DNA of 63,810 nt, the filler included, from Globobulimina sp. (Eukaryota), in NCBI GenBank assembly GCA_003354225.1. It is 48 parts of 48 records of this genome, joined end to end, with 100 filler letters (N's around TTAATTAATTAA, not from the genome) between each part and the next. Parts side by side here need not be neighbours in the genome. Positions count along the whole stretch, not along the records: positions 47,949 to 49,179 come from PIVH01020491.1; 47 more parts are not named here. One strand, written 5' to 3'. This document shows, piece by piece, positions 41,194-49,332 of the stretch (its first letter is position 1; the number at the start of each line of letters is the position of its first letter). The notes under the pieces are model-generated. The model was not told the DNA's origin. It did not search any database and saw nothing but the letters and a program-made list of their open reading frames with translations. The translations under genes were made by a program, and so were the position numbers.

Positions 41194-41352
41194 NNNNNNN
41201 NNNNNNNNNNNNNNNNNNNNNNNNNNNNNNNNNNNNNTTAATTAATTAANNNNNNNNNNNNNNNNNNNNNNNNNNNNNNNNNNNNNNNNNNNNCAAAGTC
41301 ATTTAATTTTAATTATTTCGAGACCAACGTTGTTTACCTTCCTGTACATAAT

Positions 41353-42524
41353 ATGGATATTAAATCATTTAAAAAGATGGTGGCTAAATTTAAGAGTTTA
41401 TTTGATGAAAACCCAAAAGAAAAAAAGCGGTCCTTTGTATGGAATTGCGTTTCATTGTCATTTATGACAAAGATATTGGTGGTGTTGTTTGTATTACGCT
41501 ATGTTTGGTTTTATCTATTTATTGTGCTGGCCATCGCGTATTATTTCTTACGGCCGACCCGAATATTTCGCGATTCGGTGTATCGAGGGGTCAAAGAAGC
41601 GCGTATTGTTGCTGGTGATAAGAAAATCTGTGCCATTGTGACTGGAGCCACTGGGTTTTTGGGCGAAGTTTTGGTAAAAGACCTATTAGATTCATATCCT
41701 GCCAATCAGATCAAATTATATCTGATTGTTCGCGGTAAAAAGGGTGAATCCGCACAAGAGAGAGCGCAGAAATTATTCAGTCAATATATACGCAAACACG
41801 GCCAGCATAATATACAAGTGATTGATATGGAATTAGATTCATTAAACATTGATGATATTAATATAGCGCAAAACATAACGCACATCATTCATTGTGCCGG
41901 CAATGTAAAGTTTGCAGATACTCATAGTAACATAGCTAAAATAAACATTACATGCACCTTAAAATTAAAAGCATTGTCGGACCGATATAACAGTAAATTT
42001 ATTTATATATCGACAGCCTTTGTTGGTGGCGCAGATTATTCAAAATCCACCAATTATTTGTCGACGGCAGCCGTCTATTTAGATTGCGATGACCTATCGG
42101 CAGAGAAATTATTTAGTTTAATGTTAACAAATAGGGTCGAGATTGACGAGTATATGAAACGACATCATATTCGCAATAATTATGTGTTATCGAAGATGGT
42201 GGCTGAGAGCTTAATTGGTGCGGAGAGTATAATTATTCGGCCGTCCGTCATTTCGCCAGCATGGAATTTCCCTGAACCCGCCTGGGGCGGTCAAAACCCT
42301 TCGACAATAACTCTGGTAATGGCCGGTGTGGCCGCCAGGTTAATCCGCGCACCAATCATGACTCGATTTTCCGGACAGACAACGATGCCCGTTGTGCCCG
42401 TTGATTTCGTGACCAAATGCATTGTAAATAACATGAATAGTGCAGTGAATAAGATATATTTAGCGGCCTTAAATACCAACACGAAATATAACAAAGTGTT
42501 TTCATTTTGGGAGGGAACCTGGAT
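41353..42524 (+). CDS. Fatty acyl-CoA reductase (male-sterility family) with N-terminal TM segment, 3' partial
   Basis: VTGATGFLG, IIHCAG-VKF, YISTAFV, NNYVLSK, IIRPSVI, VVPVDFV. Confidence 0.88.
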
Positions 42525-43855: not shown

Positions 43856-43955
43856 NNNNNNNNNNNNNNNNNNNNNNNNNNNNNNNNNNNNNNNNNNNNT
43901 TAATTAATTAANNNNNNNNNNNNNNNNNNNNNNNNNNNNNNNNNNNNNNNNNNNN

Positions 43956-45186
43956 TCCCAATTATCCCTGCTTAGCGGGTGGAATCGAGCGTAGTGTACA
44001 GCCAAATAATACGGCAAGAAATGCCGCTTCGAATTTGAGGAATCCCAATCATGCAATGCATGTTCAGAGCACTTTGATTGAAAATCAGAGGGCTTCAAAT
44101 AACACCACAAATCAACAACCATATGAATACCCTCCAGTACGACCGTCAGTATTAACACAAAGAGGACCCAATCAAGGACCTCATGTTACTGAACCAGTAC
44201 CAAGATATCCGTGGGATCCTGATTTTGATCCTGAGCAAGATATCAATCCAATAACGGGTATTAATCAAGTTACAACAACACAAGGTTTGACCCCTCAACC
44301 TGACCAATCTGAGCGGGTACCGCAAAGTTATAATTTGGGTGGGGAGGGTTCTAATTCTATTTGCCCCTGGACACAACCACCTAACTACCAATATTTGGGT
44401 CCTAGTCGATCGCCACCATACTATCCGGAGGCACAAGGACCCAACGGAACAGAACATAGTTCACAAGGATATCCGTCTGGTCGGGGACCGGCTGCTCCAT
44501 CCACTTCTGTACCACCTACACAGTTTGGACGCATGCCTTCCTACCGTATTCCAGCGGACCCTTTGAACCCAAATGGTGTACAACCGTTAGCTGATATAAA
44601 TGCTGCTGCAGATCAGCTCAGACAAAACGCCAACGTTTTTCAGCGCATACCACCCATCTCTGAATTGGACCATGGGCCAAAGGTGAGTGTAAAATGCAAG
44701 GACTACACCACTGCTCAAGACATCGAACAGTGGTTTGTACAGTTCGAAGTGTACTTGTGTATGATTCGATGTCGAACTGAATACGATCGAGTCACTAACT
44801 TGCATCATTACATGGCCAATCACAATTATGCATTTCTGCAAACCTTGTCCCCACATGTCCAAAATAACTACCAATTGTTCAAAGCTGCTTTATTGCGCCG
44901 TTTCCGTGAACGTGGCGATGATCGTGACAAATTACGACGAGCTATGGAAATCAAGCAATCTCTGAGTAATGATGAGACGGTTGACACCTATTATGAACGT
45001 TATGAACATGCTTTAGCAAAAGCCTTGCCAAAACAAGACATTGCTACTAGTCGTGTGTGGATCACTGTCTTTGAAACCAATTTACGACCAGACATCTATG
45101 CTAAATATAGAGATCGAGCTGGTGGTACAACTATAGAAACATTCGAACAGGACAGAGATTTGGCTGTTGACTGTGAACAACTTTTG
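43956..45186 (+). mobile_element. LTR retrotransposon (Ty3/gypsy-like) Gag, partial
   Basis: Pro-rich N-terminus; DIEQWF-QFE, NYQLFKAALLRRF, KQ...ETVDTYYERY, F-TNLRPDI. Confidence 0.82.
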
Positions 45187-46617
45187 NNNNNNNNNNNNNN
45201 NNNNNNNNNNNNNNNNNNNNNNNNNNNNNNTTAATTAATTAANNNNNNNNNNNNNNNNNNNNNNNNNNNNNNNNNNNNNNNNNNNNTTACAATAACAAAA
45301 ATAATAAAAAAACCTTCTTCAAATGTCGTCGTTATTGTATCTCGCTCTCAATTTGTGTATCGCAACCAACAACCAAACAGTCGACAGACAAACTGCAGAT
45401 TCAATCATTGCAACGTAATCTATATTTAATATGATATCATATATGTTATATTTAATAGCATCCCAAAATCATATAAAACAACGTATAATAAAATAACAGC
45501 CATACAATCGTTAACGTAGCCAGTGTCGATATCACTAGTAATGGGTCATTCGTATATAATGTGCATGTCGCAACAATCGATATTGATATACCATACGTAT
45601 CACATACAAACATCGCAATTCATCATAACGACGCAAATCTAAATATATCCGTCAATAACAATGCAGAATCATCGCGGTTAAGGTATTGTATTATGGTTTT
45701 TATACAATAATTTGTCCATAATTCAAATATGTTTATCCTTACACAGGGAACAAACATCAACAGCTGATGCCATCTAGTAATTATATTAGTTTCCACCATC
45801 ACTTTCTGCATCAAATGACATATCTATCCGTTATGTGGCACCAATAATCATCCAGTTATAACCATATATAACCATATTTATCATTATATTTTGAGTGTTC
45901 CAGAATTTTTTTATTCCACGATAGAAATTCCATTTTATGCGCGGATATCATCAATTAGCATATGATACATATGTAAAATAATTCTCAGCTTTGGCGGATC
46001 GTGGGAACCATTTTTTTTTTAATGGTTTCTGTTGATATGTATAAAATGTATAAATCCGATTGATAGGTATTGGGTTTTTTTTATTTGATGGGATTGGTTA
46101 TTTTGAGTGTCTGTTGTGTTTGTGTGATGATGTGAGTGTATTTAAAATCGATTATAACGTCTTTGCAAAGCCATTGAGGGCATCTTGATTCCATGCTTTT
46201 CTTCATAGTTCTCCATTGCAAAAACTTTCCAATCTTGACACACAATCCTTGCTCTAAATCAAAGGCTATCATGAATGGTTGGACAAAGAAAGTTGCAGCT
46301 AAAATAGCTAAATCAAATGAACATAAAGAACAAATCAGAATCCAACGTCGCGAACTTGCAATCAAACTTAAAAAGGACAAGGTAAATGTACCTAAATTGA
46401 CTAGTGCTAACTAAGTATTTTCTGTGAGCTAAATCAAAAAGGTTTGAAAAACACTTAGTGGATTGCATGCAAGGAGCGTGAATTAGTTAAAAGTACTCTT
46501 TCCTCTCCTATCTATGCNNNNNNNNNNNNNNNNNNNNNNNNNNNNNNNNNNNNNNNNNNNNTTAATTAATTAANNNNNNNNNNNNNNNNNNNNNNNNNNN
46601 NNNNNNNNNNNNNNNNN

Positions 46618-47348
46618 TTTGGATATCTTTCTTGTGACATTAAGCTCCGTCCCGATGACGCATTAATTGCTTGCAAGGCAGTTCCAATATCAATTCCATA
46701 GTATTCGACACATTGTAATCCCTCACATAATATTAGTAAATTGCTAACATTTAATAAATTATTTACACATTTCAATGAATGGCCAGCTCCAACATTTCCA
46801 ACACGGACAGGGTTAAGCGATATATGTTGCAATATTTGCGTTTTACATTGGTCAAATATCCATTCATTATCGATGTCACATCCAGCCATACAAGAAATTG
46901 TGCCTTGTTCCGCTTTGAGTGGACCACCAGACACTGGCGTATCCATGAAATATAATTTACATTTCTTATTTGAAAAATATGTATTTGAAATGAGTTGGGA
47001 TGTTTTAGCATCTCCCGATGTACAATCCATCCAAACGCAGCCTGATGGAGCAAATGGATTAAACTCTTTACTTGTAGCAAAATCAAAACATTCTGCAACT
47101 GTGTTCAATACATTTGTCGAGTTTGGCAAACACGATATCATATAATTTGAGTTTGAGATTGCTTCATCCAATGAATAGGCACCATATATATTTTTTATAT
47201 TGTTGCTACTCAGTTCTTCTAACAAAGAGCTTATTGCTTTTTTATTGGTATCATAAAGATACAAATGAAATGATGGCTGCTGGGTTGATAATCGTTTTGC
47301 GATCCTAGAACCCATAGATCCTAAACCTATGAAACCTACTTTTGTCAT
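46618..47348 (-). CDS. 3-hydroxyisobutyrate/beta-hydroxyacid dehydrogenase family, 3' partial
   Basis: GFIGLGSMG, DTPVSGGP-KAEQG, GAGHSLKCVNN, INASSGRS. Confidence 0.92.
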
Positions 47349-48200: not shown

Positions 48201-48696
48201 TCCTGTGTCAGCTGTGTAGTTCCAATTGATAATATGGCATATTTTCTGTGGTGGCATTTTGATATGTTTGGTTCGATTCGCAATTACATTGCTTAGTGTT
48301 ATATTTGGTGGGTTAAGAAGGACCAAACAACATTTTACATATCTAGGATATGAATTGTATCCAATAAATCGCGCATTGATATATATACGCATAAATATGA
48401 AGATCGTGATTGGTTGTGCTATTGGTTGTGCATTTTACCAGCTGTTTTTTATGCACTTTGTTTACATGTGGCAAATATCTTAAATATGCATATCGATTTG
48501 AGACTGGTGTATTTGGCATGGAGTTTGGATATGGATTTGGCATTGTTGACGAAGAAGATCTACCAAACGCAAGATATCATAATAAAATGATGGAATATAA
48601 AAAAACTTGCATTTCCCCATGATCATAAAGTTGCATTTATTGGCCTGTATTTATAAAATATAATATGACATTGCTGAACCAAAAAGAATTGTGATT

Positions 48697-48922
48697 GGCT
48701 TAGTAGCTCAGCGATAGAGCGTATGTCTGCAGCTTTATGCTGTGTCCCTTGGAATGTTTCGACGTTTCACTCCCAACCAAAACCCCGATATTGCTTTAAT
48801 ACCATAAATTAGCAACATACTTCAATTTATCTGTGTGTTCAGATATTCTGTAAATATTATAACAAAATGAAGTGATTGAGTTGTATTTCATATAGATGTG
48901 GGTTTAAATCCCACCTAAGCCA
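48697..48922 (+). ncRNA. Interrupted tRNA-Cys(GCA)-like gene, 226 nt
   Basis: Acceptor GGCTTAG/CTAAGCC-A, D arm GCTC-AGCGATA-GAGC, anticodon arm TATGT-CT-GCA-G, T arm GTGGG-TTTAAAT-CCCAC; about 154 nt of extra sequence between the halves. Confidence 0.7.
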
Positions 48923-48934
48923 AATTATGAATAT

Positions 48935-49021
48935 GCGCGGATGATCCTCACTGGTGTGGTGTGCAGACTTCAAATCTGTAGGTGTATAACAACACAGTGG
49001 TTCGATTCCACCTTCTGCGCG
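48935..49021 (+). tRNA. tRNA-Sec: tRNA-Sec (anticodon TCA), eukaryotic 9/4 type, 87 nt
   Basis: 9-bp acceptor, extended D stem, TGCAGA-CTTCAAA-TCTGTA anticodon arm, long variable arm, 4-bp T stem GTGG-TTCGATT-CCAC, G73; closely resembles vertebrate tRNA-Sec. Confidence 0.95.
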
Positions 49022-49332
49022 GCGCTTACTCTTAATTTTATTTTTTATATTCCCAAATTTCTTTTGTATCATATATAGTTAAGCGAGAAAACACATTATG
49101 TGATCGACATTTTTCTGCGTTGTGCTGGCCAATGCATACAATATACACTCCGAATTTTACATTGTATACATTGACTATTNNNNNNNNNNNNNNNNNNNNN
49201 NNNNNNNNNNNNNNNNNNNNNNNTTAATTAATTAANNNNNNNNNNNNNNNNNNNNNNNNNNNNNNNNNNNNNNNNNNNNTTGTATGTATATTTGTGTGGA
49301 GTCTAAAGAGTCTAAATTCTAAAATAAGAGTT

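Follow-up and report, generated by a model that had tools for sequence, protein, structure and literature searches.

A split tRNA-Cys-like element directly upstream of tRNA-Sec in Globobulimina: a candidate dimeric RNA polymerase III unit

Introduction

What is an interrupted tRNA-Cys frame doing 12 nt in front of a selenocysteine tRNA (tRNA-Sec) gene? The question is raised by a stretch of joined contigs of Globobulimina sp. (GenBank assembly GCA_003354225.1), eukaryotic DNA of about 31% GC and 63,810 nt in its full length, which is called the window below. A first-pass annotation had described a tRNA frame split by 154 nt at position 37/38 and ending 12 nt before tRNA-Sec on the same strand, and direct reading agrees with it. 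The split frame is tRNA-derived beyond reasonable doubt. Together with its neighbour it is tentatively read here as one dimeric RNA polymerase III (Pol III) unit (48697-49046), in which a non-decoding leader derived from tRNA-Cys would be followed by tRNA-Sec cut from a common precursor.

Three other explanations compete with the dimeric unit. The first, which is doubtful, holds that the element is a functional tRNA-Cys(GCA) gene with an intron, of an unusual type restricted to its lineage, decoding UGY after the splicing endonuclease has removed 154 nt; it would be dimeric with tRNA-Sec or merely adjacent to it, and the excised intron may persist as linear or circular RNA. The second, which is unlikely, is that a tRNA-Cys gene hit by a repeat lies dead before tRNA-Sec by chance and has no RNA function, its DNA serving at most as a promoter of tRNA-Sec, with the T loop turned into a TATA element at -30 by the change of C56 to T. 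The third, that 48611-49045 is a mobile tRNA-derived short interspersed element (SINE) or composite repeat rather than a pair of cellular genes, is improbable.

Anatomy and detection of the split frame

The two halves of the element (Table 1) can be read together as a tRNA frame. The 5' half contains the acceptor strand GGCTTAG, TA, the D stem GCTC/GAGC around the D loop AGCGATA, G26 and the anticodon-stem strand TATGT, and ends in CTGCAG, which holds the anticodon GCA and G37. The 3' half continues with T38, TCATA, the variable nucleotides TAGAT, the T stem GTGGG/CCCAC around the T loop and the acceptor strand CTAAGCC, and closes with the discriminator A. Once 48733-48886 is removed, a general cloverleaf with standard arm sizes results, apart from a U31.U39 (T31.T39) mismatch; its anticodon loop, CTGCAGT, has U33, the GCA anticodon of tRNA-Cys and a purine (G37) at position 37. 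This loop, the standard arms and the exact placement of the insert at 37/38 all favour a working tRNA-Cys. The acceptor stem with 7 bp, the D stem with 4 bp and the T stem with 5 bp consist of Watson-Crick pairs throughout (16/16), and the anticodon stem has 4 such pairs of 5; overall, 20 of 21 pairs are Watson-Crick and none is G.U, though near-invariant loop bases are changed.

These changes are found at the near-invariant G18-G19 and T54-Psi55-C56, where the elbow pair G19:C56 is replaced by A19 (48714) and T56 (48905), which can still form a Watson-Crick pair. Furthermore, the discriminator at 48922 is A73 in place of the U73 of tRNA-Cys, and U73 is the main identity element of cysteinyl-tRNA synthetase. 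A19, T56, A73 and the T31-T39 mismatch had all been listed in the first-pass annotation and are present as described; each of them counts against a decoding tRNA-Cys. They are equally departures of the drift type in an AT-rich genome, as a dead gene would show. Against a dead gene stand the stems, with their 20 intact pairs of 21 and no G.U in DNA of 31% GC: by a rough estimate about four stem changes would be expected at the rate of the loop G/C sites, and no disruption is seen. Intact stems beside changed loop bases thus fit selection on the fold rather than free decay, and the exons, too, are kept in diverged copies. The earlier argument had rested on A19 and T56. That the two bases can pair stands, but as a proof of selection the pair by itself is weak, because A19 and T56 each represent a GC-to-AT transition, the most frequent type of mutation, and together form the likeliest double change by drift in such a genome.

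At default settings ARAGORN called no gene in the window, tRNA-Sec included. When introns of 0-300 nt were allowed, tRNA-Sec emerged at 99% of the default threshold and the element at 98%, as tRNA-Cys(GCA) at 48696-48923 with i(38,154), that is, an insert of 154 nt at 37/38; no further call was made in the window down to 93% of the threshold. The long-intron search proposed in the first-pass annotation therefore recovers the Cys-like gene, with a score under the default threshold, which is a point against a working tRNA. When the window was shuffled 40 times by dinucleotides (2.39 Mb in all, both strands), no call was obtained at 98% and 12 were obtained at 95%, and it is on this comparison that the tRNA origin of the frame is based. 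With Rfam at gathering thresholds, tRNA-Sec is the single RNA gene of the whole window. An Rfam scan of 48500-49180 at E<=10, of the kind proposed earlier for 48697-48922, found tRNA-Sec but did not match the split element as a tRNA, returning its T arm alone as a 17-nt fragment; the general tRNA model misses the element because of the insert.

Table 1. Features of the tRNA-Cys-like element, tRNA-Sec and their surroundings (window coordinates)
Feature	Position	Strand	Remarks
AT-only stretch TATTTATAAAATATAATAT	48648-48666	+	-49 to -31 of the tRNA-like start
5' half of tRNA-Cys-like gene	48697-48732	+	36 nt; read directly and by ARAGORN
A-box-like TAGCTCAGCGA	48704-48714	+	inside 5' half of tRNA-Cys-like gene
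Insert at canonical intron site 37/38	48733-48886	+	154 nt; without TTTT; ARAGORN
UUCG-capped hairpin in insert	48750-48769	+	8 bp; predicted in every fold
AACATA, alternative A38 and perfect 3' anticodon-stem strand (reading B)	48814-48819	+	read directly
3' part of insert, also found outside the tRNA frame	48820-48887	+	X1 and X2 contigs
3' half of tRNA-Cys-like gene	48887-48922	+	36 nt; read directly and by ARAGORN
T loop TTTAAAT	48903-48909	+	-32 to -26 of tRNA-Sec +1
Spacer AATTATGAATAT	48923-48934	+	12 nt, without terminator
tRNA-Sec	48935-49021 (Rfam match 48935-49020)	+	Rfam RF01852; ARAGORN tRNA-SeC
tRNA-Sec B box GGTTCGATTCC	48999-49009	+	
TTTT A TTTTTT, candidate Pol III terminator of the whole unit	49036-49046	+	first T-run after 48447

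The tRNA-Sec gene and the proposed dimeric unit

The downstream gene scores 73.3 bits against a gathering score of 47 over the full model (positions 1-91 of RF01852), and has the anticodon TCA, a 9-bp acceptor stem, a long variable arm and the discriminator G at 49021 that are proper to the tRNA-Sec class. The first T-runs (T4, A, T6) begin 15 nt past this discriminator. As had been noted earlier, no T-run terminator lies between the two genes, and the first TTTT is found at 49036. The TTTT-free stretch 48447-49036 extends over 589 nt, and of the 1010 gaps from TTTT to TTTT in the window, 5 are as long as this. Since random windows also lack TTTT in 8% of cases at a length of 338 nt and in 27% at 154 nt, the argument from T-runs is mildly supportive at most.

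Two genes on the same strand, a 12-nt spacer, no terminator after the leader and a first TTTT at 49036 make up the layout of a dimeric gene. Published dimeric Pol III genes comprise tRNA-tRNA, tRNA-5S (with 4-17 nt between the genes) and tRNA-snoRNA pairs, whose transcription depends entirely on the upstream gene and whose products are released by RNase P together with RNase Z; the tRNA-5S dimer of Yarrowia frees 5S rRNA from its own transcription factor (PMC2566860). tRNA-Sec is a natural client of such a leader, since its A box is inactive in vertebrates, where the gene relies on extragenic elements and requires a TATA at -30, and since the T. brucei gene is embedded in a Pol II polycistron (PMC2943599).

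It is inferred in the dimeric-unit reading that the two genes are co-transcribed and processed and that the leader does not decode. Transcription would start upstream of the Cys-derived leader, run through both genes and end at the T-run 49036-49046. Cleavage by RNase Z after A48922 and by RNase P at G48935 would then free tRNA-Sec. The leader would be kept for its position and for its acceptor/T-arm fold, the feature recognised by RNase P and RNase Z, and would no longer decode, because of A73 and because a splice-site motif is missing from both the window copy and a diverged copy.

The 154-nt insert and the splicing question

The insert lies precisely at the canonical intron position, as a working intron would. 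Its length is outside the range of 6-133 nt quoted for eukaryotic tRNA introns in 2014 (PMC4090602), which tells against such an intron, and a precedent in its favour is the 113-nt intron of a Drosophila tRNA-Tyr, which yields an abundant circular RNA (PMC4536317). The fold of the whole insert is no better than that of shuffled sequences (z +0.17), as would be expected of a dead gene, and no thermodynamic signal was found in the insert or its halves (z +0.17, -0.02, -0.72 and -0.24). The UUCG-capped hairpin of the first-pass annotation is the single robust element of the insert and is indeed predicted in all folds; alone it reaches z -1.44, and 19 of 200 shuffles fold equally well. The constrained fold left the anticodon stem unenforced and was used solely for the pair list of the hairpin. 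At E<=10 over 48500-49180, Rfam returned nothing credible in the insert, and no convincing box C/D, H/ACA or Sm-site motif was seen in it on inspection by eye. A MIR395 match (minus strand, 16.2 bits, E 2.1) and a snoR137 match over tRNA-Sec (E 3.5) are not credible. A likeness to vault RNA, in the 5' end and the TTCGAC motif, was dropped, the Rfam Vault model having no match at E<=10.

Two foldings had been proposed, and both can be read in the sequence. In reading A the whole of 48733-48886 is the intron. In reading B the ACATA at 48815-48819 provides a perfect anticodon stem, A stands at intron position -3, and a second insertion of 68-73 nt is needed after position 43; by estimate, the insert should contain about 0.3 such 5-mers by chance. 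The repeat-like part begins at 48820, right after AACATA.

Splicing itself meets a specific difficulty. A proximal pair, C32:G(-3), closing a 3-nt bulge at the 3' cut is invariant in 16 intron-bearing Drosophila tRNAs, is needed for the splicing of reporters and is described as a hallmark of metazoan pre-tRNAs (PMC6614914). In reading A, intron position -3 is U48884 and the G sits at -4; positions 32-35 against -3 to -6 give no Watson-Crick and two wobble pairs, and the predicted folds bury the 5' splice site within a helix. The proximal pair is absent from reading B as well (A at -3) and from the diverged copy (U at -3). The earlier proposal of a spliced tRNA with one or more introns is weakened by the missing pair and bulge in both readings, as is the explanation by a working tRNA-Cys. 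The insert is best described as an unusually long element at the intron position, possibly repeat-derived.

Copies of the unit in two public runs

Parts of the stretch are contained in two public runs, X1 (organism A) and X2 (organism B), with word shares of 0.39 and 0.16. Run contigs were aligned at 80% likeness, and none of the four listed runs is on record as RNA. The depth in X1 is 12-82 over 48626-49022, against 3.8 and 5.1 for unique flanks. One X1 contig (record 2; 48626-48724, two differences, depth 23.9 with flanks of 3.8-5.1) represents an upstream stretch common to copies, and another (record 6; 48882-48950, 69 nt, no difference, depth 19.1) runs from the 3' exon across the spacer into the beginning of tRNA-Sec. 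Upstream, the copies continue in at least three different ways (that of the window, and loose ends at 48611 and 48691), and some contigs match an exon but become unlike the window once inside the insert, with loose ends at 48747 and 48889. These X1 contigs suggest that the unit is multi-copy; they are read as a small gene family, with exons and hairpin more conserved than the remaining insert.

When aligned by eye, a diverged copy differs by about 20-30% at the ends of the insert and keeps the exons, which is not what a dead gene would predict. Its hairpin, seen in X1 and X2, reads GAAATAT-TTCG-ATATTTC: by eye, four stem substitutions leave all 8 pairs in place (one G-C has become A-U and two G.U have become A-U), and insertions and deletions lie just outside the stem. 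One diverged X1 contig has G for T at position 39, turning U31.U39 into U.G.

In X2, coverage is restricted to 48732-48886 (depth 134-872) and to tRNA-Sec (depth 10-34), with a peak of 434-872 over 48820-48872. Adapter letters adjoin 48732 and 49019, and contig borders at 48732, 48736 and 48886 fall 0-3 nt from the predicted splice sites. Such borders, one of them beside adapter, fit a discrete excised unit, and with the depth peak they speak for a working tRNA-Cys; they may be defined RNA ends of the excised unit, or else mark where a dispersed repeat begins and ends in a short-insert DNA library. An exon-exon or back-splice joint was found in none of the X1 and X2 contigs, though contigs cannot show absence, and within that limit this is a point against a spliced tRNA. 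A joint of 48849 to 48927 with seven letters between (depth 2.3) was set aside as a possible chimera.

Contigs of both runs match the insert, or at least its 3' part, with unlike flanks, and so suggest that this sequence also occurs away from the tRNA frame. X1 record 5 (152 nt) matches 48820-48887 alone and is unlike on both sides, X2 record 12 matches 48831-48886 and is then unlike for 385 nt, and X2 record 11 (48820-48857) has a depth of 434. This behaviour is that of a dispersed repeat and favours a gene killed by insertion, as does the flanking of the repeat-like part by ACATA (48815-48819) and TCATA (48888-48892), which resemble an imperfect target duplication. An insertion at random, however, would hit 37/38 exactly about once in 70 cases. 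Pieces of the 3' exon or the insert had no match in the genome-contig and viral-contig collections.

tRNA-Sec loci in metagenomes

A metagenome scan with a degenerate tRNA-Sec pattern yielded seven loci of 42-46% GC, from GC-richer organisms, with tRNA-Sec genes that are 83-94% identical. Their upstream regions have a clear TATA, TATATATA or CATATAAG, some 30 to 21 nt before the gene (about -30 to -21), which is the vertebrate-type layout. The contig of locus L006 holds at least two tRNA-Sec genes 7.6 kb apart (999-1085 and 8617-8678), so that tRNA-Sec is multi-copy in this metagenome organism too. Two classes of upstream and downstream flanks were seen among L006, L002, L004 and L005, both with GGTATATATACC at about -32 to -21. 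On the L004 contig, which also has a tRNA-Sec gene, 622-712 is a tRNA-Tyr(GTA) with an ordinary intron of 17 nt at 37/38; long inserts are therefore not the rule in the metagenome relatives.

Weighing the readings

Several observations weigh against the dimeric unit. The higher depth of the exons in X1 may partly stem from unrelated tRNA genes, given the 80% likeness used. No X2 contig covers 48697-48704 or the flanks, and the abundant X2 record 10 joins letters like those of the upstream flank and acceptor almost directly to 48736, a form without a D arm. All four substitutions in the hairpin of the diverged copy are GC-to-AT transitions, most of which preserve pairing anyway. No tRNA-like element was found upstream of tRNA-Sec in any of the seven metagenome loci (by relaxed ARAGORN and blastn, with the upstream region of L003 also read directly), so that the leader is not general to tRNA-Sec genes and is at best lineage-specific.

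The promoter poses a further difficulty. The A box fits 7 of the 9 specified positions of the consensus TRGCNNAGTGG. The B box of the element, GGTTTAAATCC, has T at C56, and the two boxes lie about 185 bp apart. The usual distance is 30-67 bp, and C56 is contacted by TFIIIC, a C56G change having cut binding 370-fold in yeast SUP4 (PMC11811891). From these features the type-2 promoter of the leader looks poor, and initiation upstream is an assumption of the dimeric unit; for entry, either the AT-only stretch at -49 to -31 or the B box of tRNA-Sec would be required. The AT-only stretch is a candidate TATA-like TFIIIB site for the whole unit, and AT-only motifs of this sort are common in DNA of 31% GC. 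Moreover, tRNA-Sec could start on its own from TTTAAAT, a possible TATA-like element at -32 to -26. Of the idea in the first-pass annotation that the element is a leader, the leader or processing role is compatible with all that was seen, and the role of a tRNA-like promoter is weakened by T56 and the distance between the boxes.

The same heptamer bears on the explanation by a dead gene: it occupies the place where the metagenome relatives have their upstream motif and where vertebrates need a TATA (PMC2943599), although an AT-only heptamer near -30 is often expected by chance here (estimate 0.3-0.4).

The mobile SINE or composite repeat is improbable. The multiple X1 copies with their several upstream continuations and the high X2 depth would suit it. 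Against it, no second copy of the unit exists in the 63.8-kb window, the likeness in some copies reaches back 70-86 nt from the tRNA-like start and ends at the T-run, no tail that is A-rich or made of simple repeats is present, tRNA-Sec scores as a complete standard gene, and multi-copy tRNA-Sec is known from the eight genes of T. cruzi (PMC2695483) and the two on the L006 contig. The first-pass annotation had regarded a high-copy SINE at unrelated loci as fatal to its proposal; the multiple copies and the unlike flanks of the 3' part of the insert go some way in that direction, but one class of contigs bridges 3' exon, spacer and tRNA-Sec, and the element is therefore not simply a dispersed SINE.

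A bolder form of the dimeric unit is also unlikely. In it, an exapted, non-decoding tRNA-Cys would have replaced the U6-type promoter of tRNA-Sec and would serve on every copy as the obligatory point of entry and as a handle for RNase P and RNase Z, and the insert would be a discrete mobile or excised unit with a small RNA of its own that has spread to other loci.

Comparison with known systems

The dimeric unit, as read here, resembles the published dimeric Pol III genes in that the genes are head-to-tail on the same strand with a spacer of 12 nt (4-17 nt there), no T-run follows the leader, one terminator follows the second gene, and the second RNA normally uses another type of promoter, as 5S does (PMC2566860). 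It differs from them in that the second gene is tRNA-Sec, that the leader is non-standard (the 154-nt insert, T56 in the B box and A73), and that the unit is known from sequence alone. Literature searches, read as result listings and passages of the papers cited, turned up no account of tRNA-Sec sharing a transcript with a tRNA or tRNA-like gene.

The vertebrate-type tRNA-Sec gene has an extragenic TATA (-30), a proximal sequence element (PSE, -70) and an activator element, together with an internal B box (PMC2943599). The gene of the window has a standard tRNA-Sec body and B box as well as an AT-only heptamer at the corresponding place; in contrast to the vertebrate type, its -30 region is the T loop of a tRNA-like gene, and the end of the insert takes up -45 to -70. 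Inspection without a PSE model recognised no PSE.

The intron of Drosophila tRNA-Tyr CR31905, called 'unusually large' at 113 nt, has a conserved, covarying structure, gives rise to the circular RNA tric31905 and shows a pile-up of small RNAs over 45 nt (PMC4536317). It shares with the present insert an unusual length at 37/38; here a hairpin is kept in the diverged copy, and depth piles up locally over about 50 nt in one run, not on record as RNA. The C32:G pair and the 3-nt bulge are invariant there (PMC6614914) and missing here, and the Drosophila host is a standard tRNA-Tyr.

In trypanosomatids, the A and B boxes of companion tRNA genes act as upstream promoters for the U6, U3 and 7SL genes (PMC2943599). 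In both cases tRNA elements would serve a neighbouring Pol III gene that has no full internal promoter. The companions there are divergent and not co-transcribed, unlike the two genes here, which have the same orientation and a 12-nt spacer.

Window context

The window has long open reading frames (ORFs) of the usual eukaryotic kind, among them those for FBPase, a RING E3 ligase, a BTB/SPRY protein and a Ty3-like capsid, and Pfam families were found in 6 of 8 ORFs. The ORF 43912-45234 (+), about 3.5 kb upstream of the tRNA pair in window coordinates, has a weak match to the Ty3 capsid-like PF19259 (E 1.1e-05, below the curated cut-off) and may be a retrotransposon remnant. A FAR-like ORF (41296-42522, +; PF07993, E 9.5e-37) has no relative at E<=1e-20 among 3858 word-sharing candidates, and a 3-hydroxyisobutyrate-dehydrogenase-like ORF (46618-47348, -) has only seven relatives at 66-75% identity, the next being at 53% or less; the lineage is thus thinly sampled in the protein collection. 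Just before the N run downstream of the tRNA unit, 49130-49173 is a 44-nt imperfect inverted self-match (77%, E 7.6e-4, blastn). The window contains 94 N runs (4136 bases), which occur as pairs of 44 N every ~1330 bases, a regularity unlike that of assembly gaps, and which cut several ORFs.

Significance

If the element were merely a decayed pseudogene, the finding would be ordinary. The insert exceeds the quoted range of eukaryotic tRNA introns and its borders match contig borders from another organism, so a tRNA intron may have been gained from, or may spread as, a dispersed repeat. Transcription of tRNA-Sec has been studied only in vertebrates and trypanosomes, which differ radically from each other (PMC2943599). 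A dicistronic tRNA-Sec gene led by a tRNA, if true, would be a third solution and an addition to the short list of dicistronic Pol III genes.

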